Source of the DNA: Anaerolineae bacterium
Lineage (GTDB): Bacteria; Chloroflexota; Anaerolineae; S140-20
Direction of reading: 5' to 3'
DNA length: 64,000 nt
Assembly (NCBI GenBank): GCA_027021705.1
Contig: JALUTT010000022.1
Coordinates: 60-64,059, forward strand
Notes under the pieces: generated by a model
Seen by the model: the letters and a program-made list of their open reading frames with translations, nothing else
The model's database searches: none
Told to the model about the DNA's origin: nothing
Position numbers and translations under genes: made by a program
Shown here: positions 766-28,498 of the stretch, one piece after another
Layout of the letters: each line of letters begins with the position of its first letter
Position numbering within the stretch: the stretch's first letter is position 1

Positions 766-1173
766 ATGAAGAAAAAGATCCGCGTCCTGATCGCCAAGCC
801 GGGGTTGGACGGTCACGACCGGGGGGCCAAGGTGATCGCCCGCGCCCTGCGCGACGCCGGCATGGAGGTGATCTACACCGGCCTGCGCCAGACCCCAGAG
901 ATGATCGCCGAGACGGCCCTCCAGGAGGACGTGGACGTCGTGGGGTTGAGCATCCTCTCCGGGGCCCACAACGCCCTGCTCCCCCGGGTCGTCCAGTTGC
1001 TCCGAGAGCAGGGGCTGGATGACGTGCTGGTGATCGCCGGCGGTATCATTCCCGACGAAGACGTGCCAGCCCTCAAGGAGGCCGGCATCGCCGCCGTCTT
1101 CGGCCCCGGTACCATCACCGACGAGATCGTGAGCTTTATCGAGGAGCACGTGCGCGGTGATGAAGCTGGTTGA
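766..1173 (+). CDS. Cobalamin-binding subunit of an acyl-CoA mutase (methylmalonyl-CoA mutase C-terminal type)
   Basis: [12 protein letters not shown] (DxHxxG) and SILSGAH motifs; ATG 766 follows GAGGGG. Confidence 0.93.
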
Positions 1174-2155
1174 GCAGGCGCTGACGGGGGACCGGCGGGC
1201 GCTGGCCCGCCTGATCACCCTGGTGGAGAACAACGGCGCGGAAGCCCACGAAGCCCTCTCCACCCTCTACCCCCACACCGGTCGCGCCCACATCGTGGGC
1301 GTCACCGGAGCGCCGGGTACGGGAAAGAGCACGCTGGTCAACGAGCTGGCCAAAGCCTATCGGGCTCAGGGGGCCACGGTGGGGATCGTGGCCGTGGACC
1401 CGACCAGCCCCTTCTCCGGCGGAGCCCTGTTGGGCGACCGGGTGCGGATGCGTGACCTCTTCGGTGACCCCGGCGTCTTCATCCGCAGTATGGCCAGCCG
1501 GGGAAGCCTGGGCGGGCTGGCCCGGGCGACGGCGGACGTGGTGCAGGTGCTCGACGCCGTCGGCTACGACGTGATCCTGGTAGAGACGGTGGGGGCGGGC
1601 CAGAGTGAGGTGGAGATCGCCCGCACCGCCCACACGACGCTGGTGGTGGAAGCACCGGGGCTGGGCGACGAGGTGCAGGCCCTCAAGGCGGGCGTGCTGG
1701 AGATCGCCGACATCCTGGTGGTGAACAAGGCGGACCGGGAGGGAGCCATCCACACCGTCCGCGCCCTGCAGATGATGCTGGACCTGGGTCAGCCCCAGGT
1801 CACGATGCACCACGGCCAGGCGATGGAGGTGGCCGGCCTGGTCGGTCTGGCCGACGACGGGTGGAAGCCGCCCATCTGCCAGACGGTCGCCACCAGCGGC
1901 CAGGGGGTGCCGGAACTGATGGACTGCATCGCCGATCACCGGGCCTATTTGCGGGAGAGCGGGGAGTGGGAGCGGCGGGAACGGCTGCGGGCCGCCGCCC
2001 AATTGGAAAACCTGCTCCGAGAACGGCTTATCGCCCACTTGCTGGACCAGATCGGCCAGGAACGCCTCAGCGAGATCATCGCCCGGGTGGTGCGGCGGGA
2101 AGTGGACCCCCACTCGGCGGTCGAAGCGCTGCTCCGGCAGGTTGACAGTCCATAG
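1157..2155 (+). CDS. meaB: MeaB/ArgK mutase-associated GTPase
   Basis: [38 protein letters not shown] and VNKAD motifs. Confidence 0.95.
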
Positions 2156-2202
2156 TCCACGGTCCGTACTCCGTTGTTGGCAACTTGACAAGCTGCCCTA
2201 GT

Positions 2203-2358
2203 GCAGTGATTACCCATAAGTGAGCGAGAGAGTGGTCCGTAGCAAGCCGTCCACGAATTGCTCACAAATGCACGAATGAGACGGTCCTTGATTCGTGTAT
2301 TCGTGCCCATTCGTGGACGGCTAGTCTCCCTATCTCCAAAGATATGGGTAATCACCGC
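2203..2358. mobile_element. MITE-like element A, copy 1 (156 bp)
   Basis: 14-bp TIR GC(A/G)GTGATTACCCA; 8-bp direct repeat GCCCTAGT at 2195-2202 and 2359-2366; near-identical copies at 28510 and 52562. Confidence 0.85.
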
Positions 2359-2369
2359 GCCCTAGTCTG

Positions 2370-2398
2370 TTGACGGCCCGGACGATTGGTGATAAAAT
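2370..2398 (+). promoter_or_regulatory. sigma70-type promoter for the adenosyltransferase-PFOR genes
   Basis: TTGACG-17 bp-TAAAAT. Confidence 0.7.
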
Positions 2399-2505: not shown

Positions 2506-3060
2506 ATGTCAGGAACCTTCTACACCCGCACGGGAGACGACGGCTACACCGGGCTGCTGGGGGCGGAACGGGTGCCCAAGTACCATCCCCGGCCTGAGGC
2601 CTACGGCACGGTGGACGAAGCGTCGGCAGCGCTGGGGATCGCCCGGGCGACAAGCACGATGGAGCGGACGCGCCGGGTGCTGCTGATCGTACAGCGCCAC
2701 CTCTACCACCTGATGGCCGAGCTGGCTGCGACCCCGGAGGCGGCCCCCCGTTTCCGGCGGATCGGGGATGAGCAGGTTGCCTGGTTGGAGGAGACCACCG
2801 ACGCCCTCAGTTCGGCCATCGCTCTCCCCCGGGAGTTCGTCGTCCCCGGCGAGAGCTTGGCCGGCGCCGCGCTGGACCTAGCCCGGACCATCGTGCGCCG
2901 GGCCGAGCGCCGGGTCGCCCGGCTGGTCCACGAAGGACAGGTGGAGAACGACGCGCTGCTGCGCTACCTCAACCGCCTCTCCTCGCTGCTCTTCGTCCTG
3001 GCCCGCTATGAGGATCAGCAGGTGGGCGCGGGAGGCGTGACGTTGGCGAAAGAGACCTGA
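2506..3060 (+). CDS. pduO: PduO-type cob(I)alamin adenosyltransferase
   Basis: YTRTGDDGYTGL, YGTVDEA, RTIVRRAERR and YLNRLSSLLFVLAR motifs. Confidence 0.92.
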   Translation: MSGTFYTRTGDDGYTGLLGAERVPKYHPRPEAYGTVDEASAALGIARATSTMERTRRVLLIVQRHLYHLMAELAATPEAAPRFRRIGDEQVAWLEETTDALSSAIALPREFVVPGESLAGAALDLARTIVRRAERRVARLVHEGQVENDALLRYLNRLSSLLFVLARYEDQQVGAGGVTLAKET

Positions 3061-3101
3061 GGTTCAGGGCGATGTCCAAAGAAGTGAAAGGAGGGAGGTT
3101 T

Positions 3102-5096
3102 ATGAGTGCGCAAGGTGAGAACCGGTTTCCCTATCCGGGGATTCCGACCACGTCGGATGGGGCGACCGGTGTGGTCTGGGTGGAGACCCACATCACAGAG
3201 GGCTCCTGCGCCTACCCCATCACCTCTTCGACCCCGATGGGGGTAGGCTACCAGGCCGAGGTTGCCAATGGCCGGCGCAACCTGTGGGGTACGTTGCTGG
3301 CCTTCATCGAGCCGGAGTCGGAACACAGCTCAGCCTCGGCTGCGGAGGGGTTCGCTGCCGCCGGCGGTCGGGTGACTAACTTTACCTCCGGCCAGGGGCT
3401 CATCCTGATGAAGGAAGTGCTCTACGTCATCGCCGGTAAGCGGCTGCCTGTCGTCTTCCACATCGGTGCCCGGGCGCTGACCAGCCAGAGCCTCAACGTC
3501 CACGCCGGGCACGACGACGTGATGGGGGTCGCCGACACCGGCTGGGGCATCCTCTTCGCCAAGAATGCCCAGGCGGCCACCGACCTGGCCCTCATCGCCC
3601 GACGGGCCGCCGAAGCCAGCCTGACTCCTTTCCTCAACGTCCAGGATGGCTTCCTGACCACCCACACCGTGGAGAACATCCTCTACCCCGAGCCCGAACT
3701 GATGAAGACCTTCGTCGGCGACCCTCGGGAGAAGCTGATCAACCTGATGGATCCCTACCATCCGGTCCAGGTCGGCGTCGTCCAGAACCAGGACAGCTAC
3801 ATGAAGGGCAAGATCGCCCAGCGCTACTACTACGAGAAAGTGGAGCCGGCCCTGGCCGAGGCGATGGAGACCTTCTACCGGCTGACCGGCCGCCGCTACG
3901 CCCTGGTCGAGCCCTACCGGCTGGAGGACGCCGAGTACGCCATCGTCGGGATGGGCAGCATGATGGAAACGACGGAGGCGGTGGTGGACTACCTGCGGGA
4001 GCAGGAGGGCTGGAAGGTGGGGGCGCTGCACGTCACCTGCTTCCGCCCCTTCCCCAGCCGGCAACTGGTGGAGGCCCTGAAGCACCTGAAAGCCTTCGCC
4101 GTCCTGGAGCGGCTGGACGTGCCCTTGGCCCAGTCCAACCCCCTGACGGCGGAGATCAAGGCCGCCTTCGCCGACGCCGTCATCGGAACGGAAGGGTACC
4201 CGGCTGTGGAGCGGGTTCCCACCATCTACTCCGGCTCGGCGGGCCTGGGCAGCCGGGACGTGCGCCCCGGTCACCTCATCGCCACCTTCCGCCACCTGAT
4301 CGAGGAGAAGCCCCGGCGCTACTTCGTCCTGGGCGTGGACCACGAACTGGCCCTGCGGGACGGTCACGACCCCGACCTCCGTCCGGCGGGGGCCTTCTCG
4401 ATGCGGGGCCACTCGGTGGGCGGGTTCGGCTCCGTCACCACCAACAAGATCATCGCCGACGTGATGAACGACCTCTTCGGCCTCTACGTGCAGGCCTATC
4501 CCAAGTACGGAGCCGAGAAACAGGGGCTGCCCACCACCTTCTACCTGACGCTGGCGCGGGAGCGGATCCGGCTACACAGTGAGTTGACCACCATCGAGTT
4601 CGTCTACGTCCACAGCACCGACGCCTTCTACACGGGCAACCCGGTGGCCGGCCTGCGCCCCGGCGGGACGCTCTTCATCCAGACACCCTACACCGACCCG
4701 ATGGAGATCTGGCGGCACGTGCCCGCCTACGCCCGCAAGGCGATCCGGGAACGGAAGATCCGGGTGATGGCGCTGGACTCGGCCAAGATCGCCCGCGAGG
4801 TGGCCACCGACCCGGCGCTGGAGGTGCGGATGCAGGGGATCGTCCTGCTGGGCGTCTTCCTGAAGGCCACCCCCTTCGCCGAGGAGGCGGGCCTCTCCAA
4901 GGAGGCGCTGATGGCGTCGGCCGAGGAGGCGCTGCGCAAGAAGTTCGGCAAGCGCGGGGAGCAGGTCGTCCAGGAGAACCTGATCTGCGTCCGCCGGGGC
5001 TACGAGGAGGTCTTCGAGGTCCCGCCGGAGGTGATTGCCCAGGAGCCGCCTCCCATCGGACGGGAGCGGCTGTTCGCCCGGGTCGGCGTGGCCTAG
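3102..5096 (+). CDS. Pyruvate:ferredoxin/flavodoxin oxidoreductase, N-terminal part (alpha+gamma domains)
   Basis: YPITSSTPM, ESEHSSASAAEG, NFTSGQGL, GHDD and GFGSVTTNK motifs; alternative start 3072. Confidence 0.9.
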   Translation: MSAQGENRFPYPGIPTTSDGATGVVWVETHITEGSCAYPITSSTPMGVGYQAEVANGRRNLWGTLLAFIEPESEHSSASAAEGFAAAGGRVTNFTSGQGLILMKEVLYVIAGKRLPVVFHIGARALTSQSLNVHAGHDDVMGVADTGWGILFAKNAQAATDLALIARRAAEASLTPFLNVQDGFLTTHTVENILYPEPELMKTFVGDPREKLINLMDPYHPVQVGVVQNQDSYMKGKIAQRYYYEKVEPALAEAMETFYRLTGRRYALVEPYRLEDAEYAIVGMGSMMETTEAVVDYLREQEGWKVGALHVTCFRPFPSRQLVEALKHLKAFAVLERLDVPLAQSNPLTAEIKAAFADAVIGTEGYPAVERVPTIYSGSAGLGSRDVRPGHLIATFRHLIEEKPRRYFVLGVDHELALRDGHDPDLRPAGAFSMRGHSVGGFGSVTTNKIIADVMNDLFGLYVQAYPKYGAEKQGLPTTFYLTLARERIRLHSELTTIEFVYVHSTDAFYTGNPVAGLRPGGTLFIQTPYTDPMEIWRHVPAYARKAIRERKIRVMALDSAKIAREVATDPALEVRMQGIVLLGVFLKATPFAEEAGLSKEALMASAEEALRKKFGKRGEQVVQENLICVRRGYEEVFEVPPEVIAQEPPPIGRERLFARVGVA

Positions 5097-5136
5097 TCCG
5101 GCCTTTCGAGAGATCGTTACCGAGGAGAGGTGACCG

Positions 5137-6756
5137 ATGGGTGTGACAACGGATCAGTTTCAGATCGAGAAAGTGAGCACGGGGGGCGACGGCGATGGCT
5201 ACAGCCCCGACGTGATTGACGTGGAAGCCTTCTTCCAGCGGGTGATCACCGGCTACAACGAGGGCTGGGGGCCGGAGGAGTTGCCGGCCGACCTGATGAC
5301 CGCCCGCAGCCTGGTGCCGGCGGGGACCGGGGCCTTCCGCGACTTCAGCTACCTGGCCCCGGAGATCCCCGAGTTCCACAAGGAGCGCTGCACCGCCTGT
5401 ATGTCCTGCGTCAACGCCTGCCCCGACACGGCCATCCTGGGCAAGGTGGTGACGCCGGAGACGCTGGAGGAGCACCTGGCCGGCGTCGAGGACGAGGCGG
5501 AGCGGGCCTACCTGCGCGACCAGTTCGCCGTCACCCGCAAGTTCTACGAGTCGCGGGAGCGGCGGGGGCAGACGCCCGGCTACTTCGGCATCTTCATTGA
5601 CCCGACCAAGTGCAAGGGGTGCGCCGAGTGCGTGGAGGTCTGCCACGACCTGGGCTTTGACGCCCTGAGCATGATCACCAAGCGGGACGAGACCGTTCCC
5701 ATCTACCAGAAGGCCATCAACTTCTTCCGCCGGCTCCCGCCGACGCCGGAGGAGTTCATCTCCGAGCGGCTGCCGGTGGACTACATGCTGAGCGAGGAGG
5801 CCCTCAGCTACGTGGGCGGGGCCGGCTCCTGCGCCGGCTGCGGTGAGGCCACGGCCCTGCGGATGCTGATGGCGGCCACCACCTACCAGTACGGTCGGGA
5901 GAACATGGCCATCGTCGCCGCGACCGGCTGCAACACCGTCTACGGGTCCACCTACCCCTACAACCCCTTCCTGGTGCCCTGGATCAACTCCCTCTTCGAG
6001 AACGCACCGACGACGGCCATGGGCATCCGCGCCCACTGGGATCAACTGGGCTGGCAGGAGAAGCGGCTCTGGGTCCTCGGCGGGGACGGGGCGATGTACG
6101 ACATCGGCTTCCAGGCCCTCAGCCGGATGGTGGCCTCGGGGATGGACATCAAGGTCTTCGTTATGGACACCCAGGTCTACTCTAACACGGGGGGCCAGGC
6201 CAGCACCGCCTCCTTCCCCGGCCAGGGGGCCAAGATGGCGGCCATCGGCAGGACGATCAAGGGGAAGCAGGAGCAGCGGAAGGAGTTGGGCCGCATTATG
6301 ATGATGCACCCCAACGTTTTCGTGGCCCAGACGGTGACGGCCATCCCCAACCACTTCTACCGGGCGGTGATGGAGGCCAACACCTATCCCGGCCCGGCGG
6401 TGGTGATCGTCTACACGCCCTGCCAGCCGGAGCACGGCATCGCCGCCGACCGGAGCCGGTATCAGGCCAAGCTGGCCGTCGAATCCCGCGCCTTCCCCGT
6501 CTTCATCTACGACCCACGCAAGGGGGAGACGATGCGGGAGCGGCTGGACCTGAAGGGGAACCCGGCGGTGAAGGAGGATTGGTACGTGGTGCCCAAGACG
6601 GGGGAGCGGATTGACTTCATCACCTTCGCCCGCAGCGAGGGCCGTTTCGCCCGCAACTTCGACGCCGAGGGGAACCCCAACGAGATCCTGCTGAAGGCCC
6701 AGGAGGATCGGCTGCAGAACTGGCGGCTGCTCCAAGAGCTGGCCGGCCTGCGCTGA
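5137..6756 (+). CDS. Pyruvate:ferredoxin oxidoreductase, ferredoxin + TPP-binding (beta) part
   Basis: CTACMSCVNACP and CKGCAECVEVC 4Fe-4S motifs; GSCAGCGE, ATGC, GGDGAMYDIG and YSNTGGQ motifs. Confidence 0.92.
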   Translation: MGVTTDQFQIEKVSTGGDGDGYSPDVIDVEAFFQRVITGYNEGWGPEELPADLMTARSLVPAGTGAFRDFSYLAPEIPEFHKERCTACMSCVNACPDTAILGKVVTPETLEEHLAGVEDEAERAYLRDQFAVTRKFYESRERRGQTPGYFGIFIDPTKCKGCAECVEVCHDLGFDALSMITKRDETVPIYQKAINFFRRLPPTPEEFISERLPVDYMLSEEALSYVGGAGSCAGCGEATALRMLMAATTYQYGRENMAIVAATGCNTVYGSTYPYNPFLVPWINSLFENAPTTAMGIRAHWDQLGWQEKRLWVLGGDGAMYDIGFQALSRMVASGMDIKVFVMDTQVYSNTGGQASTASFPGQGAKMAAIGRTIKGKQEQRKELGRIMMMHPNVFVAQTVTAIPNHFYRAVMEANTYPGPAVVIVYTPCQPEHGIAADRSRYQAKLAVESRAFPVFIYDPRKGETMRERLDLKGNPAVKEDWYVVPKTGERIDFITFARSEGRFARNFDAEGNPNEILLKAQEDRLQNWRLLQELAGLR

Positions 6757-9444: not shown

Positions 9445-10758
9445 CTAAGGGCCGTCGGTGACCTTCTGGTAGAAGAGCGGCAGGGGCTCCACCGGCTCAT
9501 CGGACCACCGGTGGGCCGCCAGCAGGCGCTCCCGGGCCAGGGCCAGCTTCTGGGGATCGTTGGCGTGGATGGTGAAGAGGGGGGTGCCGGCTTCCACGTA
9601 GTCACCGACCTTGTAGTGGACGATGATGCCGACGGCGTGGTCCACGGGATCGCCCTTCTTCTCCCGGCCGGCCCCCAACAACACCGCCGTCATCCCCACC
9701 TCCCGCGCATCCACGGCGGCCAGGTAACCGGAGCGGGGGGCGGACACCGCCTCCACGTAGCGGGCCTGGGGCAGCTTCTCCGGGTCGTCCACCTGGCTCA
9801 CGTCCCCGCCCTGGGCCTCGATCAGTTGGCGGAACTTCTGCCAGGCAGCCCCCGAGGCGATCCGCTCGGCGGCCAGGGCGATCCCCTCTTCCTCGCTCTG
9901 GACTTTGCCCCCCAGGAGCAGCATCTCACTGGCCACGACCAGGCAGTGCTCCCGGAAGTCGGGAGGGCCGCCCTCGTGGAGCACGTCAATGGCCTCCCGC
10001 AGTTCCAGCGCGTTCCCCACGGCCCAGCCCAGGGGCTGGTTCATATCCGAGAGCAGGGCGGTGATCCGCCGGCCCGCGTCCTTCCCAATGCTGACCATCA
10101 TCTCGGCCAGGGCCCGCGCCTCTTCCAGGGTGCGCATAAAGGCCCCTCGGCCCACCTTCACGTCCAGGACCAGAGCGTGGGCACCGCTGGCCAGCTTCTT
10201 GCTCATCACCGAACTGGCGATCAGGGGGAGGCTGGAGACGGTCGCCGTCACGTCCCGCAGAGCGTAGAGCTTCCCGTCGGCCGGGGCCAGGTCCAGGCTC
10301 TGGCCGGTGAGGACGATGCCGATGCGCCGGAGCTGGTCCAGGAACTCGGCGGTGGTCAGATCCGAGCGGTAGCCCCGGACGGACTCCAGCTTGTCCAACG
10401 TCCCGCCGGAGAAGCCGAGCCCTCGGCCCGTCATCTTGCCCACGGGCAGGCCGGCCGCGGCCACCACGGGGGCCACGACCAGCGTCGTCTTGTCCCCCAC
10501 CCCGCCGGTCGAGTGCTTGTCCACGACGACGGGGGCGATGTCGGAGAGGTCCAGGATGTCGCCGGAATGGGCCATCTCCAGCGTCAGGTCCACCGTCTCC
10601 CGCCGGCTCATCCCCCGCAGGTAGACGGCCATCAGCCAGGCCGCCGCTTGGTAGTCGGGGATGTCGCCCCGAGTGTAGCCCTGGATGAAGAAGTGGAGTT
10701 CCTCGCGCGTTAACTCCCCTCCATCCCGCTTCTTGGCGATAATGTCCACGGCTCGCAT
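9445..10758 (-). CDS. pdp: Pyrimidine-nucleoside (thymidine) phosphorylase
   Basis: [28 protein letters not shown] and [11 protein letters not shown] motifs. Confidence 0.95.
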
Positions 10759-10789
10759 AAGCTTTCTCCTCCAAAGCGATTCTGCCAGG

Positions 10790-10911
10790 GTATCTATTCA
10801 GCCTACCCTCCCGCAGGTCACCGGTCGAGGGTGCTTTCAGCCCCGATGGGCGATTTGAAGCACGGTTTCGCGTCGGAAACGCGCCTAACCTGCGGGAGGG
10901 TGAACGGTTAC
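10790..10911 (-). mobile_element. MITE-like element B1 (122 bp)
   Basis: 8-bp direct repeat CTGCCAGG at 10782-10789 and 10912-10919; internal IR ACCCTCCCGCAGGT; copies at 41229, 42376 and 43431. Confidence 0.85.
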
Positions 10912-11010
10912 CTGCCAGGAAGGGTGGTTTGCCCGGATTGTACTTCAGGATGGCCGGAGGAGCAAGGGCATCGCAGGCTTGAGCTGCCCCCTCCCGCAGG
11001 TTCCTAGGCG

Positions 11011-11038
11011 TTGACTTTTGCTCTGCTTCGTGTAGAAT
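11011..11038 (+). promoter_or_regulatory. Putative plsX promoter
   Basis: TTGACT-16-TAGAAT, preceded by TG. Confidence 0.55.
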
Positions 11039-11075
11039 TCCCCCGACGGATTCCGCGACTCGGGAGGGGAACACC

Positions 11076-12083
11076 ATGCGAATTGTGCTCGATGCGATGG
11101 GCACCGACAACCACCCGGTGCCCGACGTGGAGGGGGCGGTGCTGGCCGCCCGCGAGTGGGGAGACGAGATCATCCTGGTGGGGGATGAGGCCCGGATCCG
11201 GGCGGAGTTGGGCAAGTACGATGTCCGAGGGCTGCGGCTGGAGATCGTCCACGCCGGCCAGGTGATCGCGATGGATGAGGAGCCGGCCCGGGCTGCCCGC
11301 GTCAAAAAGGACGCCTCGATGCGGGTGGGGATGGACCTGGTGCGGGACGGTCGGGCGGACGCCTTCGTCTCGGCCGGCAACACCGGCGGTGTCCTGGCCG
11401 TAGCGACCCTCTACAGCCTGAAACGGATCCCCGGCGTGCAGCGACCCGCCCTGACCACCATCCTGCCGGTGATGAACGGGCGGGTGGTCCTGCTGGACAT
11501 CGGGGCCAACGCCGACTGCAAGCCCAGCTACCTCTACCAGTTCGGGGTGATGGGCAGCATCTACGCCGAGCGGGTGTTGGGCTGCACCTCTCCCCGGGTG
11601 GCCTTGCTCTCCAACGGGGAGGAGCCGGGCAAGGGGAACACTCTGGTCAAGGAGGCCTTCGCCCTGCTTCGGGACTCCTCTCTGAACTTCATCGGCAACG
11701 TGGAGGGGAAGGAGATGATCGCCGGGGAGGCCGACGTGGTGGTGACCGATGGGTTCACCGGCAACGTGGTGCTCAAGACCATCGAGGCGGTGGCCAAGAT
11801 GCTCAACGAGCTGATCCGGGTCGAGGTGACGGCCAATCCCCTCACGATGGTGGGGGGGCTGCTGGCGAAGCCGGCCTTCAGGCGGGTTGCCCGTCGGATT
11901 GACCCCTTCGAGATCGGCGGCGCGCCACTTTTGGGCGTCAACGGGGTTGTCATTATTGCCCACGGGCGCTCCAACGGGCGGGCGGTGAAGAACGCCATAG
12001 GCCAGGCCCGCCGAGCTGTGGAAGGCCGGATCTTGGACGCCATCCAGGAAGGATTGGCTGCCTTCGCCCATCGGGGGACCTGA
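11076..12083 (+). CDS. plsX: Phosphate acyltransferase PlsX
   Basis: MRIVLDAMGTD, VSAGNTG, LDIGANAD, LLSNGEEPGKGN and VVTDGFTGNV motifs. Confidence 0.96.
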   Translation: MRIVLDAMGTDNHPVPDVEGAVLAAREWGDEIILVGDEARIRAELGKYDVRGLRLEIVHAGQVIAMDEEPARAARVKKDASMRVGMDLVRDGRADAFVSAGNTGGVLAVATLYSLKRIPGVQRPALTTILPVMNGRVVLLDIGANADCKPSYLYQFGVMGSIYAERVLGCTSPRVALLSNGEEPGKGNTLVKEAFALLRDSSLNFIGNVEGKEMIAGEADVVVTDGFTGNVVLKTIEAVAKMLNELIRVEVTANPLTMVGGLLAKPAFRRVARRIDPFEIGGAPLLGVNGVVIIAHGRSNGRAVKNAIGQARRAVEGRILDAIQEGLAAFAHRGT

Positions 12084-12086
12084 CAC

Positions 12087-13133
12087 GTGGACTCCTCCCC
12101 AGACGTAGATTGCTTCGAGCAGTTCCTGCAGATCAGCCGGGTAGACCTAGAGGTCTTTCTGTCCGATCGGTTCGCCCAGGTGCTCTGGGGGTTCTACCTG
12201 AATCCCCGCTACCTGCGGGGCAGCGACTTCCTGATGCGCTTCTCGCAAGGCCGCTGGGCCGAAGAGATCGTGGTGCGGACAATCAACGCGACAGAAGCGT
12301 TTCGCGCAATTCCCTATGGACCGTCCAGCGTCGCTCCTTCCGACCCGTTTGAGATGGAGCGGTACTTCGAGCGTTTGGACAAAGCTAGGACGGTTGGCAA
12401 GAGGCCGGACTTGCTCATCCTGCCGAAAAGCGCCTTTGAAGCGATCCGCCCTCAGCTTGACGACATAGGCGTGCCCAACTTACCCTTTACCTCTGAGGCA
12501 GACCTGGAGTTCCTGCTTTCCAAGGCCATCCTCGCCGTCGAAGTGGAGAACAGCCTCTGGGTGGCCCGCGAGATGCCCGATTACGGGAAAGGTGTCGCCC
12601 TGATAGACCTGGCTGCTCGTCCTCGACGGTTCAGGAAACCGGAAAAGGTTGTGCAGTGGAAGGCGTGGACCGAGAACGTTCGGCGCTTCTGCGCTCAGTC
12701 GCCGGCGCGAGCACGCCTAATGGGGTTCCTGGAGACAGCCAAAGTGCCGACCGTGATTATCAAGGAAGAAGACCTAGCGCCTCTTGTGGATTGGGAAGCG
12801 GCCTATGGCATTCCCCTTCACGTCTTCCACCTGTTCTACGATGAGGCATACTACATCGCCCTTCAAGACGCCTGTGAGTTGATCGAGAACGGGATCATCC
12901 TCCCTACTGAGCAAACCTTCTACGCCCCTGGAGGACCGACAACCCGCAAACGCATTTACAAGATCTGGTACACGCTGGCCCGGCCGTTGGGGACGATGGT
13001 TGAGGCACCGGAGATGTCGGCTCGATTTATCAAGGACAAGAACGGCCACATCCTCCCTTACGTGCACTTCTCCGGCGGTCGGATGAGCCTGTCTGAGGAG
13101 ATCCTCACCGATCTTCGGAGTCGGTTGCTATGA
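12087..13133 (+). CDS. Type II restriction endonuclease, AccI family
   Basis: GSDFLMRFSQGRWAEE...AIPYGPSSVAP...KRPDLLI matches my recollection of AccI-family enzymes; adjacent to an m6A MTase; GTG start. Confidence 0.75.
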   Translation: MDSSPDVDCFEQFLQISRVDLEVFLSDRFAQVLWGFYLNPRYLRGSDFLMRFSQGRWAEEIVVRTINATEAFRAIPYGPSSVAPSDPFEMERYFERLDKARTVGKRPDLLILPKSAFEAIRPQLDDIGVPNLPFTSEADLEFLLSKAILAVEVENSLWVAREMPDYGKGVALIDLAARPRRFRKPEKVVQWKAWTENVRRFCAQSPARARLMGFLETAKVPTVIIKEEDLAPLVDWEAAYGIPLHVFHLFYDEAYYIALQDACELIENGIILPTEQTFYAPGGPTTRKRIYKIWYTLARPLGTMVEAPEMSARFIKDKNGHILPYVHFSGGRMSLSEEILTDLRSRLL

Positions 13134-15286
13134 CCGGTGCCCGCGAATTGCTCGAAGCCCTAACATTGCCCCTGGCAGAAAAGCTGGTGCGGCTGGTGCC
13201 GGCCGCCTCCGGCGAGGAAATGAGGAAGTGGGCACGGCTTCACAGCTGGGATGCTCCCGTAGATGAGCAGGTGCTTGCTCACCAAGCCGCACTCAACCTG
13301 GTGCTACGGGGCCTGATCAGTTATCAACTGGATGCTGATGCGCTGCCCGCCACAGCCCCGGTCCAGTTCCTCACCTCCCACAGCAACGCTCTGCTGAGAG
13401 CCTTGGGAATCGAACCACAACCTTCTTCCATCCTAGACCTCCTGGCCCTGCAGTCCGACTTGGTCCTCCGGGTCCCCCAGATCGCAACCCTGGCGGAGGC
13501 GCTGCAACGGGCTTCCGAAGACGTCATCGGGGATGCTTACGCAGCGTGGATCCCCCAGCGTGCCCGTCGCGCACCGGGGCAGTTCTGGACCCCCTGGCCC
13601 ATCGCCCAACTGATGAGCCAATGGGCTATCCAATCGCCTACCGACCGGGTGCTGGATCCAGCTTTTGGCTCCGGTGTCCTCTTGCTGGCAGCGATAAACC
13701 GGTTGATCCAACGAGGAGCATCCTCGGAAACCGCCCTGCAAAGTGTGGCGGGCGTTGAGATCAGCCCTTTGGTCTTCCTAATGGGCCTGACCAATCTCTT
13801 GCTGCGATACCCTTCAAGCGTTCGGCTTCGCCTGCGGTGGGACGACTTCTTGCTACCCCGAGGAGAGCCGGCCGCGATCCTGCGGGAGCCCACAGCAGCG
13901 TACACGCTTGACGTGCGTCAGATGGCCCTGCCGGGGATGGCAACGACCGCCCCGACCACCTTCTCCGAGAAGTTCGACGCCATTATTTGCAATCCGCCGT
14001 ACACACGGCACCACCGCCTGCCTGAAGCTTACAAGTCTACCTGGGCAACGGTCGCGGAGCAAGAGTTCGGCGTCAAGCTCAGCCGTTTTTCCAGCCTGTT
14101 CGCCCACTTCTTCATCCAGGCCAGCCGGATGCTCGCGCCCGATGGCCGAATGGCTTTCATCACACCGGCAACGGTATTCGAGGCTTTCTACAGCAATCAG
14201 ATCAAAGCTTTCGTTCGACGGGAGCTACGCTTGCGGGCCATCGTCAGCTTTGACGAAACCTTTCCCGTTTTCGAAGGCGTGGACACCGCAGCCTGTATCA
14301 CGCTGATCGAAGGGCCGGGCGCTCCTCCCCGTGACTGGGTCGTACACCTACAGGTGCACCGGTGGCCTGGAGTGGAACCGATACTCGATGCGGTTGAGCA
14401 AGAGGGTGAGGGAGACATCGACTGGGGGCATCGGCGAAGGCTTCGCCTTTCCGCCTTGGAGCCGGATCGCAAATGGACGGTCATCGGGCATAACAACCAC
14501 GACGATGGACGGCTTGTTCCCCTCGCCTCGCTCGCCCGCATTGTACGGGGCATCGCCACCGGTGCCAATGCCTTCTTCGTGCTTTCGGACGATGAGGTGA
14601 AGCACTGGGGGGTTGATCCAACCAACTTGCGCCCTGTACTGACCAAGACCCGTGAAGCGCCGGGGTATGCCTTTACCGAGGACGACTTCGACCGGCTGGG
14701 CCGGGAGGGGAAGAAGCGCTGGCTGCTGTACCTGACAGGACCGGTACAGCCCGATACCCCAGAAGCTCTCTACATCCGATGGGGTGAAGCCCAGCATTTG
14801 CACGAGCGCAGCCTGGTCAGAACCCGGCCTCTCTGGTACACGATGGAACAGCGCGACCCCGCCCCCATCTACTTCACCTACCTGAGCCGCAAGCGATCAC
14901 GTTTCATCTACAACCTGGCCGGTGTGCTGGCCCTTAACGTCTTCCTTTACATCTACCCAATCCCCGCCATCGGTCGGGACGAACAGATGCTGAAGGCTTT
15001 TCTTGCCGTGCTGAACTCGCGGATGACCAAAGCAGCCCTGCGACAGGTAGGCCGTACCTACGGCGGTGACACCATCAAGATCGAGCCCAGGGAGATGGAC
15101 CGCCTGCCTGTCCTGAACCCGCTTAAGCTCACCCTGAGCGAGCAGGAGAGACTGGCAACGCTGTTCGACGAACTCTGTCAAGCCGAGTCTAGAGAAGCCG
15201 AGGAGGCCATACGCCAGGCGATCCAAGAGACCATCACAGTGACCGCTAACATCGAGGAGTCGGACGAAAGAAAGAGGAGAGGATGA
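13130..15286 (+). CDS. N6-adenine DNA methyltransferase (gamma-type motif order)
   Basis: Motif I VLDPAFGSG precedes motif IV IICNPPY; C-terminal target-recognition region. Confidence 0.9.
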   Translation: MTGARELLEALTLPLAEKLVRLVPAASGEEMRKWARLHSWDAPVDEQVLAHQAALNLVLRGLISYQLDADALPATAPVQFLTSHSNALLRALGIEPQPSSILDLLALQSDLVLRVPQIATLAEALQRASEDVIGDAYAAWIPQRARRAPGQFWTPWPIAQLMSQWAIQSPTDRVLDPAFGSGVLLLAAINRLIQRGASSETALQSVAGVEISPLVFLMGLTNLLLRYPSSVRLRLRWDDFLLPRGEPAAILREPTAAYTLDVRQMALPGMATTAPTTFSEKFDAIICNPPYTRHHRLPEAYKSTWATVAEQEFGVKLSRFSSLFAHFFIQASRMLAPDGRMAFITPATVFEAFYSNQIKAFVRRELRLRAIVSFDETFPVFEGVDTAACITLIEGPGAPPRDWVVHLQVHRWPGVEPILDAVEQEGEGDIDWGHRRRLRLSALEPDRKWTVIGHNNHDDGRLVPLASLARIVRGIATGANAFFVLSDDEVKHWGVDPTNLRPVLTKTREAPGYAFTEDDFDRLGREGKKRWLLYLTGPVQPDTPEALYIRWGEAQHLHERSLVRTRPLWYTMEQRDPAPIYFTYLSRKRSRFIYNLAGVLALNVFLYIYPIPAIGRDEQMLKAFLAVLNSRMTKAALRQVGRTYGGDTIKIEPREMDRLPVLNPLKLTLSEQERLATLFDELCQAESREAEEAIRQAIQETITVTANIEESDERKRRG

Positions 15287-16542
15287 ACCACAACCATCGC
15301 AGTGATGAGCAGCGCGTGGTGATCACCGGGTTGGGCCTGATGACCCCCCTGGGACTCACCGTGCAGGAGACATGGGAGGGGCTGATCGCCGGCCGGTCGG
15401 GCATCGGGCCGATCACCCTCTTCGACGCCACCGGCTACCCCAGCCAGATCGCCGGCGAACTGAAGGGCTTCGAGCCCCGAAAGTATGTCGGCTTCAAGGA
15501 GGCCCGCCGGATGGCCCGCAGTTCCCAGGTCGCCGTGGCGACGGCCCAAGAGGCCATCGCCGACGCCGGCTTCAGCAACGGCTGGGCCAACCCGGAGCGG
15601 GTCGGCGTGGTGGTGGGCACGGCGATGGGGGGCTTCGACATGGCCGCCCAGCAGATGCGGGTCCTTTGGCAGAAGGGATGGCAACGGGTCAGCCCCTTCG
15701 CCCTCCCCGCCTCCATCCCCAACATGCCCGCCTTCCACATCAGCCGCTTCTTCGGCGCTCAAGGCCCCACCACGACGGTGACCAGCGCCTGCGCCACCGG
15801 AACCCAGGCCGTGGGCGAGGCTTGCGAACTGATCCGGCGAGGGGCCGCCGACCTGGTGATCGCCGGCGGTGTGGAAGCACTCATCCACGAGGTCGCCTTC
15901 GCCGGCTTCGCCGCGATGCGAGCTCTCTCCACCCGCAACGACGAGCCGGAGCGGGCCAGCCGCCCCTTCGACGCCGACCGGGATGGCTTCGTCTTCAGCG
16001 AAGGGGCCGGCATCCTGATCCTGGAGAGCCTGGCCCACGCCCGTGCCCGAGGGGCCCGCATCTACGCCGAAGTGCTGGGCCACGCCTCCGCCTCCGACGC
16101 CTACCACATCGCCGCCCCCGATCCCACGGGGGCCGGGGCCATCCGGGCCATGCGCTGGGCGCTGGAGGACGCCGGCCTGACCCCCGACGACGTGGACTAC
16201 ATCAACGCCCACGGTACCTCCACGCCCATCAACGACGCCGTGGAGACCCTGGCCATCAAGACCCTCTTTGGCGAGCAGGCCTACAACATCCCCATCAGCT
16301 CCACCAAGTCTATGCTGGGGCACCCGATGGGCGGGGCCGGAGCCATCGAAGCCGCCGTCTGTGCCCTGATCATCCACCACGGCATCATCCACCCTACCAT
16401 CAACTACGAGACGCCCGATCCCGAGTGCGACCTGGACTACGTGCCCAACGAGGCGCGACGGGCCGACGTGCGGGTCGTGCTCTCCAACTCCTTTGGATTG
16501 GGTGGTCAGAACGCCTGTCTCGTCCTAGGAGCCGTCCGATGA
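15283..16542 (+). CDS. fabF: 3-oxoacyl-ACP synthase II
   Basis: VVITGLG, TSACATG (catalytic Cys), YINAHGTST, KSMLGH and SNSFGLGGQN motifs. Confidence 0.95.
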   Translation: MNHNHRSDEQRVVITGLGLMTPLGLTVQETWEGLIAGRSGIGPITLFDATGYPSQIAGELKGFEPRKYVGFKEARRMARSSQVAVATAQEAIADAGFSNGWANPERVGVVVGTAMGGFDMAAQQMRVLWQKGWQRVSPFALPASIPNMPAFHISRFFGAQGPTTTVTSACATGTQAVGEACELIRRGAADLVIAGGVEALIHEVAFAGFAAMRALSTRNDEPERASRPFDADRDGFVFSEGAGILILESLAHARARGARIYAEVLGHASASDAYHIAAPDPTGAGAIRAMRWALEDAGLTPDDVDYINAHGTSTPINDAVETLAIKTLFGEQAYNIPISSTKSMLGHPMGGAGAIEAAVCALIIHHGIIHPTINYETPDPECDLDYVPNEARRADVRVVLSNSFGLGGQNACLVLGAVR

Positions 16543-17234
16543 AACTCGTCGTCAACACCGCCTTTGCCACCCGTCGGGAGAAGCTGGCCCAGTGGACCGG
16601 CCTGTCGGGCATCGCCATCCTGCTGACGGGGACCGCCTTCTCCTTCCTGCGGCCCGAGGTGCCGGTCATCCCCTTCATCACCCTCATCGTCGGTTTCCTG
16701 ACCACGCGCGTCAGCCTCTACCTGGCCAACCGCTATATGCCTCAATACCGGGCGGACACCGTAGTCGCCCAGGCCCTCAAAGGGCTTGACGATCGTTACA
16801 CCTTCTACGCCTACGCCCTGCCTGTCCCGGCGGTGCTGGTGGAGCCGGGCATTGTCACCCTCTTCCTGCTCAAAGGCCAGCGAGGTCAGGTGTGGTATGG
16901 GGAGGATGGGCGGTGGCACCACCGGGCCAGCCTCTACTGGCGTCTGGTGGGCCGGGACGAGCCCCTGGGCGACCCGGAGCGGGAGGCGGAGGCCGCCTTG
17001 CGCAAGATGCAGGCCCTCTTCGAGAAAGCCCTGCCGGGGGAGGAGGTGCCGATGCGGGTCGTCGTCCTCTTCACCAACCCCGAGGTGGAGCTGAAGGCCA
17101 ACGGTGCGCCGCTGCCGGCCCTCCCCCTCCGACGGTTGAAAAAGTGGCTGCGCGGAGCCGGTCGGACCCAGGCCCTCTCCGGTCGGCTGCGCCGCCAGGT
17201 CATCGCCGCTTTGGACGAGGCTGCCAGCCTCTGA
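16539..17234 (+). CDS. Membrane-anchored hypothetical protein with a NERD-like domain
   Basis: ATG 16539 overlaps the fabF stop; two TM helices, then ALKGLDDRYTFY...VLVEP. Confidence 0.6.
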   Translation: MKLVVNTAFATRREKLAQWTGLSGIAILLTGTAFSFLRPEVPVIPFITLIVGFLTTRVSLYLANRYMPQYRADTVVAQALKGLDDRYTFYAYALPVPAVLVEPGIVTLFLLKGQRGQVWYGEDGRWHHRASLYWRLVGRDEPLGDPEREAEAALRKMQALFEKALPGEEVPMRVVVLFTNPEVELKANGAPLPALPLRRLKKWLRGAGRTQALSGRLRRQVIAALDEAASL

Positions 17235-17255
17235 GTCTTGAACCCCGAACCCCCG

Positions 17256-19838
17256 ATGTCCAAACCCACCCCCATTCGCCGTCAGTACCTGGAACTCAAA
17301 CGCCAGCACCCCGACGCCATCCTCTTCTTCCGGCTGGGCGACTTCTACGAGACCTTCGACCGGGACGCGGAGATCGTGGCCCAGGAGCTGGACCTGGTCC
17401 TCACCTCCCGCCCGGTCGCCAAAGGGGAGCGGGTGCCGATGGCCGGCGTTCCCCACCACGCCGTCGAGGGCTACATCGCTCGCCTCATCGAGAAGGGCTA
17501 TCGGGTGGCCATCGCCGAGCAGGTGGGCGACGCCCCGGTCAAGGGGCTGGTCCCCCGAGAGGTGGTGCGGATCGTCACCCCCGGGACCGTCGTCGAGCCG
17601 ACCCTCCTGGAGGAGAAGCGCCCCAACTACCTGGCCGCCCTCGTCGTGACCGAGGGACGGGCCGGCCTGGCCTACGCCGAGATCACCACCGGCGAGTTCG
17701 CCACCACCCAACTGGAGGGCGAGGAGGTGACCACCCTGCTCCAAGAGGAGCTGGCCCGCCTCTCCCCCCGCGAGTGCCTGCTCCCCGAGGCCCTCCAGGG
17801 CCGGGCGGATGGCTGGCTGCCCGAGACGACCCACATCACCCCCCGTCCTGACTGGCAGTTCGAGCAGGAGACGGCCCGCCAGGCCCTGATGGAGCAGTTC
17901 GGCGTCGCCACCCTGGCCGGCTTCGGCTGCGAGGGGAAGCCCCTGGCCATCCGGGCCGCCGGGGCCATCGTCCAGTACCTGCGGGAGACCCAGAAGCGGG
18001 CGCTGGCCCAGTTGACGGGCCTCTCCACCTACAGCACCCGCCGCTTTATGCTCCTGGACCCCGCCACCCGGCGCAACCTGGAACTGACGGAGCCGATCCG
18101 GAGCGGCGGCAAGCGGGGCTCCCTCCTCGGCGTCCTCGACCGGACCCAGACGCCGATGGGAGGCCGGCTGCTGCGCATCTGGATGGGACAGCCCCTCCTG
18201 GACCGAGAGGCCCTGGAGCAGCGGCTGGACCAGGTGGAAGCCTTCTATGAGGACGGCGTGGCCCGGGCTGCCGTCCGCCAGGCACTGAAGCGGCTGCCCG
18301 ACCTGGAGCGGCTGACCAACCGCGTCGTCGGCGGAACGGCGACGCCCCGCGACCTGGTGGGCATTCGCAAGGCGCTGGAGGCGGTGCCCCGACTGCAGGA
18401 GGCGCTGCCCCCCCTGACGGCAGCCCATCCCGTCGTCGAGGGGCTGGCGAGGGCGCTGAACCCCTGCCCGGAGGTGGCCGAACTCATCGCCCAGGCCATC
18501 ACCGACGACCCGCCTGCTTCCCCCGGCCAGGGCGGGGTGATCCGCCCCGGCTTCTCCCCAGAACTGGACGCCCTCCTGACGGCGGCCCGCGATGCCCGAG
18601 GCTGGGTGGCCCGCCTGGAGCAGCGGGAGCGGGAGCGCACGGGGATCAAAACCCTCAAGGTAGGATACAACAAGGTCTTCGGCTACTACATCGAGGTGAC
18701 CAAGGCCAACGCCTCCCGGGTGCCCTCCGACTACATCCGCAAGCAGACGCTGGTCAACGCCGAGCGGTACATCACGCCGGAGCTCAAGGAGTACGAATCG
18801 CTGATCCTCAACGCCGAGGAGCAGCGCAGCGAGGTCGAGACGCGCCTCTTCCGGGAGGTCTGCCGGCAGGTGGCCGTCCACGCGGCGACTCTGTTGGAGA
18901 CGGCCCGGGCCATCGCCCGGCTGGACGTGGTGACCACGCTGGCGGAGGTGGCCCGCCGCAACGACTACGTGCGCCCGGAGCTGACCGACGAGGACCTGCT
19001 GGAGATCGAGGCGGGCCGCCACCCCGTCGTCGAGCAGACGCTGGAGGGGGAGACTTTCACGCCCAACGACCTCCACCTGGACCGGCGGCGGCGCATCCTC
19101 ATCGTCACCGGCCCCAATATGGCGGGCAAGAGCGTCTACCTGCGCCAGGCTGCCCTCATCGTCCTAATGGCCCAGATGGGCAGCTTCGTCCCGGCCCGCC
19201 GGGCCCGCATCGGCCTGGTGGACCGCATCTTCACCCGCATCGGAGCTCAGGACGAGGTGGCGGCCGGCCAGTCCACCTTTATGGTCGAGATGGTGGAGAC
19301 GGCCCACATCCTCCACCACGCCACCCGCCGCAGCCTGCTCATCCTGGACGAGATCGGACGGGGGACGAGCACCTACGACGGCCTCTCCATCGCCTGGGCC
19401 GTCGTCGAGTACATCCACAACCATCCCCGGCTGGGGGCCAGGACCCTCTTCGCCACCCACTACCACGAACTGACGGCGCTGGCCGAGCGGCTTCCGGGCG
19501 TGGAGAACGTGAACATGGCCGTGGCCGAGGAGGGAGACCAGGTCGTCTTCCTGCACCAGGTCGTGCCCGGCGGGGCGGACAAGAGCTACGGCATCCACGT
19601 GGCACAACTGGCCGGATTGCCCCGGGCCGTCATCCACCGGGCCGAGGAGCTCCTGGCAGGGTTGGAGAGCGGTGAGTTACGCCCCGGTCAACGCGAGGAA
19701 GAAGAGACCCCCGTACAACTGACCCTCTTCACCGACCACGATCCCATCCTCGAGGAACTGAAGACGCTGGACATCAACAGCCTGACCCCTCTGGAAGCGC
19801 TGAACAAGCTCTACGAGTGGCAGCAGCGGATGAAGTGA
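17256..19838 (+). CDS. mutS: DNA mismatch repair protein MutS
   Basis: TPIRRQYLELK, FFRLGDFYETF, TGPNMAGKS, GQSTFMVEM and DEIGRGTST motifs. Confidence 0.97.
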   Translation: MSKPTPIRRQYLELKRQHPDAILFFRLGDFYETFDRDAEIVAQELDLVLTSRPVAKGERVPMAGVPHHAVEGYIARLIEKGYRVAIAEQVGDAPVKGLVPREVVRIVTPGTVVEPTLLEEKRPNYLAALVVTEGRAGLAYAEITTGEFATTQLEGEEVTTLLQEELARLSPRECLLPEALQGRADGWLPETTHITPRPDWQFEQETARQALMEQFGVATLAGFGCEGKPLAIRAAGAIVQYLRETQKRALAQLTGLSTYSTRRFMLLDPATRRNLELTEPIRSGGKRGSLLGVLDRTQTPMGGRLLRIWMGQPLLDREALEQRLDQVEAFYEDGVARAAVRQALKRLPDLERLTNRVVGGTATPRDLVGIRKALEAVPRLQEALPPLTAAHPVVEGLARALNPCPEVAELIAQAITDDPPASPGQGGVIRPGFSPELDALLTAARDARGWVARLEQRERERTGIKTLKVGYNKVFGYYIEVTKANASRVPSDYIRKQTLVNAERYITPELKEYESLILNAEEQRSEVETRLFREVCRQVAVHAATLLETARAIARLDVVTTLAEVARRNDYVRPELTDEDLLEIEAGRHPVVEQTLEGETFTPNDLHLDRRRRILIVTGPNMAGKSVYLRQAALIVLMAQMGSFVPARRARIGLVDRIFTRIGAQDEVAAGQSTFMVEMVETAHILHHATRRSLLILDEIGRGTSTYDGLSIAWAVVEYIHNHPRLGARTLFATHYHELTALAERLPGVENVNMAVAEEGDQVVFLHQVVPGGADKSYGIHVAQLAGLPRAVIHRAEELLAGLESGELRPGQREEEETPVQLTLFTDHDPILEELKTLDINSLTPLEALNKLYEWQQRMK

Positions 19839-20087: not shown

Positions 20088-20654
20088 ATGGCTGTTACCA
20101 CAACGCCCATCCGCTGGACGCGGGCCGATCTAGACCTGCTGCCCGAGGACGGCATCCGCTACGAAATCGTTGATGGAGAGCTTCTGATGTCCAAGCAACC
20201 CCACTGGCATCATCAGACTACGTGTAACGCCATTGCAGCGGCTTTAACCAACTGGTGTCACACAAGCGGTTTCGGTCACGTTGCACCAGCACCCGGCCTG
20301 GTCTTCGACGACGAGAACGACGTGGTACCGGATGTCGTCTGGGTGAGCGATGAGCGGTTGCAGGCGATCCTGGGGGAAGATGGACACCTGCACAGCGCGC
20401 CAGAATTGGTTGTGGAAGTGCTCTCCCCCGGCACCTCCAAGGAGCGCCGAGATCGGGTGGTGAAGCTGAAGCTCTACTCGCTGCGGGGGGTGCAGGAGTA
20501 CTGGATCGTGGACTGGAGGGCCCGGACCATCGAGGTCTACCGGCGGCAGGAGGGGGTGCTGCGCCTGGTGGGCACCTGGCGGGAGGAGGATGAGTTGACG
20601 TCGCCACTGCTGCCCGGCTTCCGGGCGCGGGTCTCAGACCTGGTCGCGAGTTAA
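20088..20654 (+). CDS. Uma2-family (DUF820) endonuclease-like protein
   Basis: RYEIVDGEL, VVPDVVWV, PELVVEVLSPGT and GVQEYWIVD motifs. Confidence 0.9.
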   Translation: MAVTTTPIRWTRADLDLLPEDGIRYEIVDGELLMSKQPHWHHQTTCNAIAAALTNWCHTSGFGHVAPAPGLVFDDENDVVPDVVWVSDERLQAILGEDGHLHSAPELVVEVLSPGTSKERRDRVVKLKLYSLRGVQEYWIVDWRARTIEVYRRQEGVLRLVGTWREEDELTSPLLPGFRARVSDLVAS

Positions 20655-22008: not shown

Positions 22009-22026
22009 GCCAAAATCTCCTTTACC

Positions 22027-22548
22027 TCACTGGCCCTGTGCGGCTTGCAGGCTACGAACGTAGTTGATCACGTCCCAGCGCTCACGCGGGGTCATGTTCT
22101 CAGCCAGCGCCGGCATCGCACCAAAACCGTCGGTCAGGGTCAGGTAGAGGGCCCCATCCGGCTGAGAGACGATGCGCTCATCCCGCAGATCGGCCGGCTT
22201 GTTGGCGTCCTCCTTCCAAAATTCGACGATTGGACCATCGCCGGCACCCTCCTCACCGTGGCAGAGGGCACAGTGCAGGTTGTACAGCACAGCGCCCCGT
22301 TGCAGGGAGACCGCGTCAGCCGGGACCGGGTTGAGAGGAAAGGTATCGGCCATCGCGGGGCGTGCTTCGGCTGAGAAGGCCACCGCCCCCTCAGCAGGGA
22401 GCCGCCGAGGCCCCTCCTGATAATCCACGGAGGGCTGGTTCTCCATAAAGCTGACGAAGTCCACGCGGACGATCTCGTAGGTCGCCAGAAGGGCCACGAC
22501 GAGGGGGCTGGCCAAGATTGCCAAAGTGATGAGAATCCGTCGCGTCAT
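22027..22548 (-). CDS. actE: Monoheme cytochrome c, ActE-like
   Basis: FMENQPS...CALCHG...DG.LY..LT.G...MP...E...ERWDVINYVR; position in the operon. Confidence 0.75.
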   Translation of the reverse strand: MTRRILITLAILASPLVVALLATYEIVRVDFVSFMENQPSVDYQEGPRRLPAEGAVAFSAEARPAMADTFPLNPVPADAVSLQRGAVLYNLHCALCHGEEGAGDGPIVEFWKEDANKPADLRDERIVSQPDGALYLTLTDGFGAMPALAENMTPRERWDVINYVRSLQAAQGQ

Positions 22549-27551: not shown

Positions 27552-27558
27552 CGGCCTC

Positions 27559-28128: not shown

Positions 28129-28469
28129 CCTGTACTTCCTCGTGGTGGAATCGTGATTTGAAGACCTGCTCGCTCGTCGGGGCTACATCGTCAGGCTGGC
28201 AAGGGCCTTGCCGCGCCCCCATCGCCCTTCCCAAGCCCTCCCGCAGGCGGAGGAGGAAAAGCCACACATGGAGCAGCCCTGCTCGACCGGCAGGCTCGCA
28301 AGCCTGCCCCACTTGTCACCTCTACGCCACCATCGCCTCAAAAAGAAACCCGACCGGGTTGATCGCTATCCGTTGCGAAACCGCGACGATGGTCACCGCG
28401 GTCGGGTATGGACTCCTGCGAACCGATGGGGGACACCTTCCTTGGCTTTTTTGGGGGACAGACCGTCAT

Positions 28470-28498
28470 ATTTTAGCATACGAAGCCCCAGGCGTCAA
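28470..28498 (-). promoter_or_regulatory. sigma70-type promoter for the act-like operon
   Basis: Minus strand TTGACG-17-TAAAAT. Confidence 0.7.

Follow-up and report, generated by a model that had tools for sequence, protein, structure and literature searches.

A miniature inverted-repeat element of uncultured Anaerolineae found at a fixed distance upstream of predicted sigma-A promoters

Promoter-seeking transposition is already known for the autonomous elements TnGBS, ISLre2 and ISKra4, for which it was described in 2009-2014. The TnGBS/ISLre2 elements and the ISKra4 group employ prokaryotic Mutator-like DDE transposases and integrate upstream of sigma-A promoters, 13-17 bp from the -35 box, with the formation of 8-9 bp repeats (PMC3942029). 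In the promoter-targeting Mutator-like families, the inverted repeats measure 18-39 bp and carry a conserved C at the terminus, and members whose two repeats are nearly identical have promoters beside either end (PMC3942029). ISKra4 is contained in the p-MULT 4 family, which occurs in several phyla including Chloroflexi (PMC3942029), and ISKra4-family ends start with GGGTGC and are accompanied by direct repeats of 9 bp (Table S1, PMC3942029). TnGBS and ISLre2, as they are summarized there, insert 15-17 bp upstream, always in the same orientation and with the right end at the promoter (Brochet et al. 2009 via PMC3942029). The published threshold for calling promoter targeting is >20% of sites (PMC3942029). 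To account for the positioning, Guerillot et al. (2014, PMC3942029) suggested that the transposase is guided to its site by docking onto the initiation complex of RNA polymerase, and compared this with Ty3.

Here we analyze element A, a non-coding mobile element that is present three times in a 64,000-nucleotide stretch of Anaerolineae DNA (the window). In its small size, inverted repeats, target-site duplication, hairpin interior and many intergenic non-coding copies, element A resembles ordinary bacterial MITEs such as the Correia elements of Neisseria and IS-derived elements. The usual targets of known bacterial MITEs are short sequences (TA, for example) or other repeats, and some of these elements bring promoter parts of their own. 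The literature searched contained no bacterial MITE with a constant spacing to host promoters, and a literature search for the terminal repeat of element A returned unrelated primers only.

An alignment of the copies gives element A a consensus length of 157 bp with the ends GCGGTGATTACCCA...TGGGTAATCACCGG. The copies are 156-159 bp long, exhibit pairwise identities of 83-99% and are too short to code for a transposase. In the consensus, 13 of the 14 outer bases are complementary between the ends, and the clear inverted repeat spans 14-16 bp. The 14-bp terminal inverted repeat given in a preliminary description of this DNA is present, but its two outer bases vary, and the invariant core is the 12-bp sequence GGTGATTACCCA, which is found at both ends of nearly all full copies. 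The two bases outside the core are GC, TC, CT or CC on one side and GG, GC, AC or AA on the other, with C outermost at most left ends and G at most right ends. The interior of the element is a long imperfect palindrome built of CACGAAT heptamers, and copy 1 folds as a long hairpin (-38 kcal/mol, z = -7.45 relative to shuffled sequence). An Rfam search of the window returned three tRNAs only, with no match at element A. Direct repeats of 8-9 bp, some with one mismatch and two of only 7 bp, flank 15 of the 17 copies that retain both ends; no target-site duplication was recognizable at the ends of window copy 2, and none is present at the copy of related locus L007. Element A is a MITE: it is short and non-coding, and it has terminal inverted repeats, target-site duplication and dispersed copies.

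The three window copies and the 8-bp duplication of copy 1 were confirmed directly in the sequence (Table 1). Each copy occupies the gap between two genes of the same orientation, after the stop codon of the first and before the promoter of the second. The distance of 11 bp from terminus to promoter that had been claimed for all three copies is exact, with the boxes and 17-bp spacers as described; counted from the 12-bp core instead of the 14-bp end, it amounts to 13 bp. As had also been noted, the end that faces the promoter is not always the same: it is the right one in copy 1 but the left one in copies 2 and 3. The left end of copy 2 faces a promoter on the minus strand, and its right end is 5 bp from the stop codon of a TPR gene. 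Copy 3 begins 11 bp past the FolD stop codon (52549-52551). Transcription from the copy 1 promoter is predicted to start near 2405, and this promoter is the sole promoter-like site in 2000-2700. An independent consensus scan likewise identified each of the three window promoters as the sole promoter-like site within its 700 bp, and the same criteria yielded 18 promoter-like sites on both strands of the whole window. The chance that three of five element ends would meet a promoter-like site at one fixed offset is ~3e-11. A distance of 335 nt separates the copy 2 promoter from the downstream ActA-like cytochrome gene, whose alternative-complex-III-like operon continues with NrfD, ActD and cytochrome c genes.

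Table 1. Coordinates of element A copies, neighboring features and other short elements (window positions unless a related locus is named)
Feature	Position	Strand	Remarks
MeaB GTPase gene, upstream of copy 1	1157-2155	+	ends 48 bp before copy 1
Copy 1, left target-site duplication GCCCTAGT	2195-2202		exact 8 bp, read directly from the sequence
Element A, copy 1	2203-2358	+	full length, 156 bp, left to right; right end faces promoter
Copy 1, terminal cores	2205-2216 (AGTGATTACCCA, one mismatch) and 2345-2356
Copy 1, right target-site duplication GCCCTAGT	2359-2366		followed by 3 bp (ctg), then the -35 box
Predicted host promoter, copy 1	2370-2398	+	TTGACG-17-TAAAAT, extended -10 TG; 10/12 consensus matches
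Operon after copy 1	2506-6756	+	PduO-type cobalamin adenosyltransferase 2506-3060, then 2-oxoacid:ferredoxin oxidoreductase subunits 3072-5096 and 5137-6756
Alternative-complex-III-like operon start, after copy 2	25335-28128	-	ActA-like multihaem cytochrome 28128-27559 and TAT-signal molybdopterin subunit
Predicted host promoter, copy 2	28470-28498	-	TTGACG-17-TAAAAT, extended -10 TG; start near 28463
Element A, copy 2	28510-28665	+	full length, 156 bp; cores 28512-28523 and 28652-28663
TPR gene beside copy 2	28670-29530	-
Element A, copy 3	52562-52681	-	120 bp, reverse orientation, without the right-terminal 36 bp; core 52668-52679
Predicted host promoter, copy 3	52693-52721	+	TTGACA-17-TAAACT; start near 52728
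Aldehyde:ferredoxin oxidoreductase gene, served at copy 3	52835-55027	+	preceded by FolD, then copy 3
Copies of the ~122-bp MITE family	43431-43552; 10782-10902 (-); 42377-42497; 41230-41341		also in L001, L002, L005, L006, L013 and L015
Elements with the same terminal repeat and other interiors	L006 4979-5143; L017 6770-6850; L014 2584-2640; L010 ~920-950; L001 ~376-396

The fixed offset extends beyond the window. Outside copies were fetched with patterns from the element interior only, so their flanks were not selected for. They derive from one MAG contig, where the element lies upstream of nusA, and from 18 metagenome loci, all of sample Ga0256830; they occupy distinct sites, and these related loci share no homologous region with the window. 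The three window copies and the 20 outside copies make up a set of 23 copies with 38 readable ends. A strict promoter pattern (TTGNNN, N16-18, TANNNT), with offsets counted from the 12-bp core up to 60, starts 11-13 bp from the core in 21/23 copies. Over the 38 ends, it is found at offset 13 in 15 ends, at offset 12 in five and at offset 11 in one, and any other offset up to 60 accounts for only two matches. The background frequency of the pattern in the same DNA is 1.7e-4 per position, which corresponds to ~0.02 expected matches. The L005 copy is accompanied by a weaker site (TGGTCA-17-TATAAT) at offset 12, and the L003 copy is the only one of the 23 without any adjacent promoter-like site. 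The non-random distances of the further copies, with 15 ends at exactly 13 bp from the core, agree with the earlier suggestion that the transposase targets promoters at a fixed offset. The promoter is invariably directed away from the element, which presents its left end in 14 copies and its right end in eight, with no significant bias, and all copies are intergenic. The specificity is near total, with 21-22 of the 23 copies beside a promoter and within 2 bp, although copies that landed elsewhere could be lost to selection, so that the surviving set would overstate it.

What is the conserved feature of these sites? Alignment of 22 promoters shows T1 and G3 in 22/22 -35 boxes and T2 in 20/22; the -10 box reads TA...T in 22/22 and is preceded by the extended -10 G in 20/22. 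The 11 bp that separate the element from the -35 box exhibit no consensus except for G or C at the last position. Thus, the promoter, rather than the cut site, is the conserved feature. The distance from the duplication-defined end to the -35 box is 11-12 bp, and the target-site duplication occupies this interval and ends 3 bp before the box. Both hexamers and the spacer vary between sites. Judging from their sequences, the promoters beside element A belong to the host, as originally supposed, because the duplications separate the element from the -35 box, the boxes vary, the promoter alone is conserved and the genes served are unrelated. These genes, outside the window, include nusA, greA, acpP, ssb and genes for a LacI-type regulator, a class I aminoacyl-tRNA synthetase, an FMN-dependent dehydrogenase, a Ser/Thr protein kinase, trehalose synthase and glycosyltransferases.

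Two further proposals of the preliminary description concerned the genes and the target. Redox genes do follow the window copies, but the first gene after copy 1 encodes a PduO-type adenosyltransferase, and because the genes served elsewhere are functionally unrelated, the redox theme of the three window operons is a coincidence. A redox regulon is ruled out by the gene content downstream of the other copies, and retention of the element as a shared regulatory module is unlikely, given the unrelated genes. The empty-site arrangement GACAA-N3-TSD-N3-TTGAC holds for copy 1, but no other copy has a TTG at offset 13 on the non-promoter side. A palindromic GACAA...TTGAC target, for which the mirror-position TTG occurs in copy 1 only, is therefore ruled out; the palindromic target is not general, and recognition is one-sided.

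Four loci (L006, L014, L010 and L001) contain stacked insertions, in which an older element with this terminal repeat is separated from the promoter by a newer element A copy. The stacked elements abut through the duplicated target, and the same 8-9 bp were reused. In L006, a 165-bp element of a second family, family B, is located between two divergent promoters (4979-5143) and has CTGCTGACC on both sides. The left CTGCTGACC was later entered by a family A copy, so that the 9-mer is now present three times, and the newest element is nearest to the promoter, at the canonical offset. L014, L010 and L001 repeat the L006 layout with remnants of older elements. Two integrations in the same 8-9 bp at the same -35 box are predicted by anchoring to the promoter and not by random survival. 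In L017, an 85-bp element with the same ends adjoins a family A copy. The presence of several short families with one repeat implies a single shared transposase that acts in trans. Two end types recur in the related short families, GGTGATTACCCATATCT... and GGTGATTACCCA(C/T)AAGT..., and may represent the two ends of the parent element.

We consider it likely that element A is non-autonomous and is moved in trans by a transposase that chooses sites just upstream of sigma-A promoters, which would make it a miniature relative of TnGBS, ISLre2 and ISKra4. A DDE transposase encoded elsewhere would mobilize the element in trans. Its choice of site would not be made by the sequence that is cut; instead, a sigma-A (sigma-70-type) promoter would fix the distance at which the staggered cut is made upstream of it. 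Assuming that transcription starts 7 nt after the -10 box, the duplicated 8-9 bp would fall at about -46 to -39 from the start, and the element end at ~-47. Either orientation would be possible because the two ends are nearly identical. The core promoter would remain intact, and the upstream DNA alone would be displaced by ~165 bp, allowing insertions to be tolerated before essential genes as in a 'safe haven'. We infer that the recognized target is RNA polymerase or sigma-A rather than bare DNA and that a Mutator-like (ISKra4-type) transposase is probably responsible. This membership is argued from behavior; no candidate for the defining protein, a Mutator-like DDE transposase with the N1-N2 signature motif, was found in the window, 19 related loci or viral contigs.

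The ISKra4 group (p-MULT 4) is the closest of the described systems. Similar to element A, it inserts at a fixed short distance upstream of the sigma-A -35 box, with either end facing the promoter where the inverted repeats are nearly perfect, its direct repeats measure 9 bp compared with 8-9 bp here, and its GGGTGC... ends loosely resemble GCGGTGAT of element A. The wider p-MULT 4 family is known in Chloroflexi, and the host of element A, to judge by the names of its closest AOR homologues, belongs to Anaerolineae of Chloroflexota. However, ISKra4-group members are autonomous elements of 1.4-2 kb with their own transposase, whereas element A is 157 bp long and non-coding, and no transposase was found for it. 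Element A also differs from the promoter-targeting Mutator-like families in its shorter inverted repeat (14-16 bp versus 18-39 bp), in an outermost base that is not always C and in its offset of 11-12 bp from the duplication-defined end versus the published 13-17 bp; the 13 bp counted from the core reach the low edge of that range. Its specificity of 21-22/23 copies compares with the published threshold of >20%. TnGBS and ISLre2 (p-MULT 3), as far as they are summarized in the work cited above, share with element A, as interpreted here, a DDE transposition upstream of sigma-A promoters with 8-9 bp duplications and an intact core promoter, but are large and autonomous, have ends of the GT(T/A)AGTG... 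type and reside in Firmicutes. Yeast Ty3 parallels the proposed mechanism in that a transcription initiation complex directs its integration to a constant distance from the start site. Unlike element A, Ty3 is a eukaryotic retroelement that relies on TFIIIB/TFIIIC of the Pol III machinery, and neither its sequence nor its mechanism is related.

The reading that competes best with this one accepts the targeting as real and assigns it to a parent transposase that is not Mutator-like, for example of the IS1 family, which might read the -35 hexamer directly as DNA. The first six bases of the element A core match what we take to be the start of IS1 ends (GGTGAT), and if IS1 ends are, as we assume, of the GGnnnTG type, GGTGATT of element A matches at 6/7 positions. 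IS1 generates duplications of 8-9 bp, a length that fits those of element A; no IS1-type transposase was found. A direct readout of the -35 box would also agree with its invariant T and G (22/22), which are stronger than in typical promoter collections. However, the IS1 family is not known to target promoters, and a reader of the hexamer would need no -10 box, yet the full -10 is present in 22/22 sites and the extended -10 G in 20/22, features that selection could add. The 11-bp offset, which is outside the published 13-17 bp (PMC3942029), favors a parent of another kind; the one-sided, orientation-independent recognition is that of the ISKra4 group. On balance, we regard a non-Mutator parent as unlikely. 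Slightly less probable still is a broader version, in which the shared transposase lies outside the known promoter-targeting Mutator-like families, and/or the repeat at ~-48 to -61 co-regulates dozens of housekeeping promoters. If true, promoter targeting would have evolved independently, or a transposase or host protein that binds the repeat would co-regulate the nusA, greA, acpP and ssb promoters, turning the MITE into a genome-wide wiring device.

An essentially random insertion, after which only copies in a harmless position or in a useful position as a regulatory module survive, is far less credible. Losses of in-gene copies would leave all copies intergenic, as observed, and related strains share all three window insertions as fixed copies. 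Nonetheless, insertions should be tolerable at other neutral places between genes, for example between convergent genes or further upstream, yet only one copy of 23 (L003) lacks a promoter-like site and L005 has a weaker one. Single-base precision, with 15 of 21 at exactly 13 bp, is unexpected from tolerance alone, as is the reuse of the same 8-9 bp target in the four two-element stacks. A shared effect on the promoter is conceivable for a terminal repeat that is always at about -48 to -61, but the genes served share no function, and either end faces the promoter. That the element instead carries an outward-facing promoter as part of the mobile unit would explain why a promoter abuts its end in nearly every copy, but this is hardly credible at all, since the target-site duplication separates the element from a -35 box, spacer and -10 box that differ from copy to copy, the promoter is at either end and never at both, the family B element with its two divergent promoters being the exception, and element A contains no promoter-like site.

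If the transposase is positioned by sigma-A promoters as we propose, the novelty of element A lies in the MITE form of promoter targeting, in its occurrence in uncultured Anaerolineae, in its near-total precision and in its natural stacking; no report of such a MITE was found in the literature searched. Its junctions mark predicted sigma-A promoters in a lineage without transcription data, and the 22 junctions provide a promoter model of TTGaca, a 17-bp spacer and TGnTAnaaT, in which the extended -10 is nearly invariant. The stacks offer natural evidence for the promoter, rather than the cut sequence, as the target and bear on the polymerase-docking proposal. Element A explains short-read assembly breaks just upstream of genes and constitutes a clean system for testing how such transposases find promoters.

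Could an autonomous partner be identified? The search for an insertion sequence with the same terminal repeat, which the preliminary description had recommended, was negative in the window, in 19 related loci and in viral contigs. No transposase gene with element A ends was found in the window, where no large ORF tested matched a transposase family in Pfam or NCBIfam. The 19 related loci yielded no transposase with these ends, and L001-L020 contain no extra paired cores. In viral contigs, no terminal-core pairs 0.06-4 kb apart were found among the matches, and all 31 matches to GGTGATTACCCAYAWST were single chance hits in low-GC phage contigs. No empty site was recovered, and the strain relatives (L021, L022, L025-L033) carry the same three insertions. 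In strain contigs that are 98-99% identical to the window, the junctions of all three insertions are identical; those of copy 2 are the same in the related assemblies L027, L029 and L033, and the copy 3 insertion is identical in the 98.8%-identical contigs L021 and L022. The distant AOR homologues (L023, L065 and L066) are not syntenic with the window. Three contigs (L025, L026 and L033) end inside element A. The strain orthologue of copy 2 in L029 contains a nested insertion of ~80 bp (53-142) that has the inverted ends TGGTTTGTCAACC...GGTTGACGACCCA and a CTAG duplication. This insertion is absent from window copy 2 and looks like a third small mobile element.

The flanks of some copies share a further motif. 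The near-palindrome GGCAAyTTGACAArCTGCC is found on the non-promoter flank of two unrelated insertions, at window 2180-2198 and L008 5486-5504, and the related sequence TTGACAACGCTGCC forms the -35 region of the copy 3 promoter. Three of the 16 TTGACAA sites are followed by CTGCC, and all three adjoin element A (~0.06 expected). The motif may be an operator that was parted from its promoter by the insertion.

The long leader of the ActA gene (28129-28463, minus strand) includes, at 28365-28347, a terminator-like hairpin with a T-run. The leader has no Rfam family match and may, for the alternative-complex-III-like operon, function as an attenuator or as a leader element of an undescribed type. 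Several short-read contigs of relatives break ~167 bp upstream of the ActA gene.

The window contains a second, unrelated MITE family of ~122 bp with the ends GTAACYGTTCACCC...GGCTGAATAGATAC, an internal inverted repeat CCACCCTCCCGCAGG and an 8-bp duplication. No fixed promoter offset was seen for this family. Its copy at 43431-43552 (duplication GAGCCAAG) is absent from the 98.8%-identical contig L021 and is therefore a recent insertion. The large ORFs at 9986-11383 (minus strand), 15372-17234 and 21118-22374 have no Pfam or NCBIfam match. Genes for an AccI-like restriction endonuclease and an N6-adenine methyltransferase, which likely form a restriction-modification pair, are followed by those for MutS and a Uma2-family endonuclease (12087-15286, 17238-19838 and 20088-20654). 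Finally, approximately eight tandem 60-bp repeats (ggccggtgaaggcgtaggaggcccttccagggccgagcccccgg) are located at 58184-58678 between a response-regulator gene and a cupin gene. The array is flanked by short gtcgggcttggaaag repeats, and the whole array is absent from L021.
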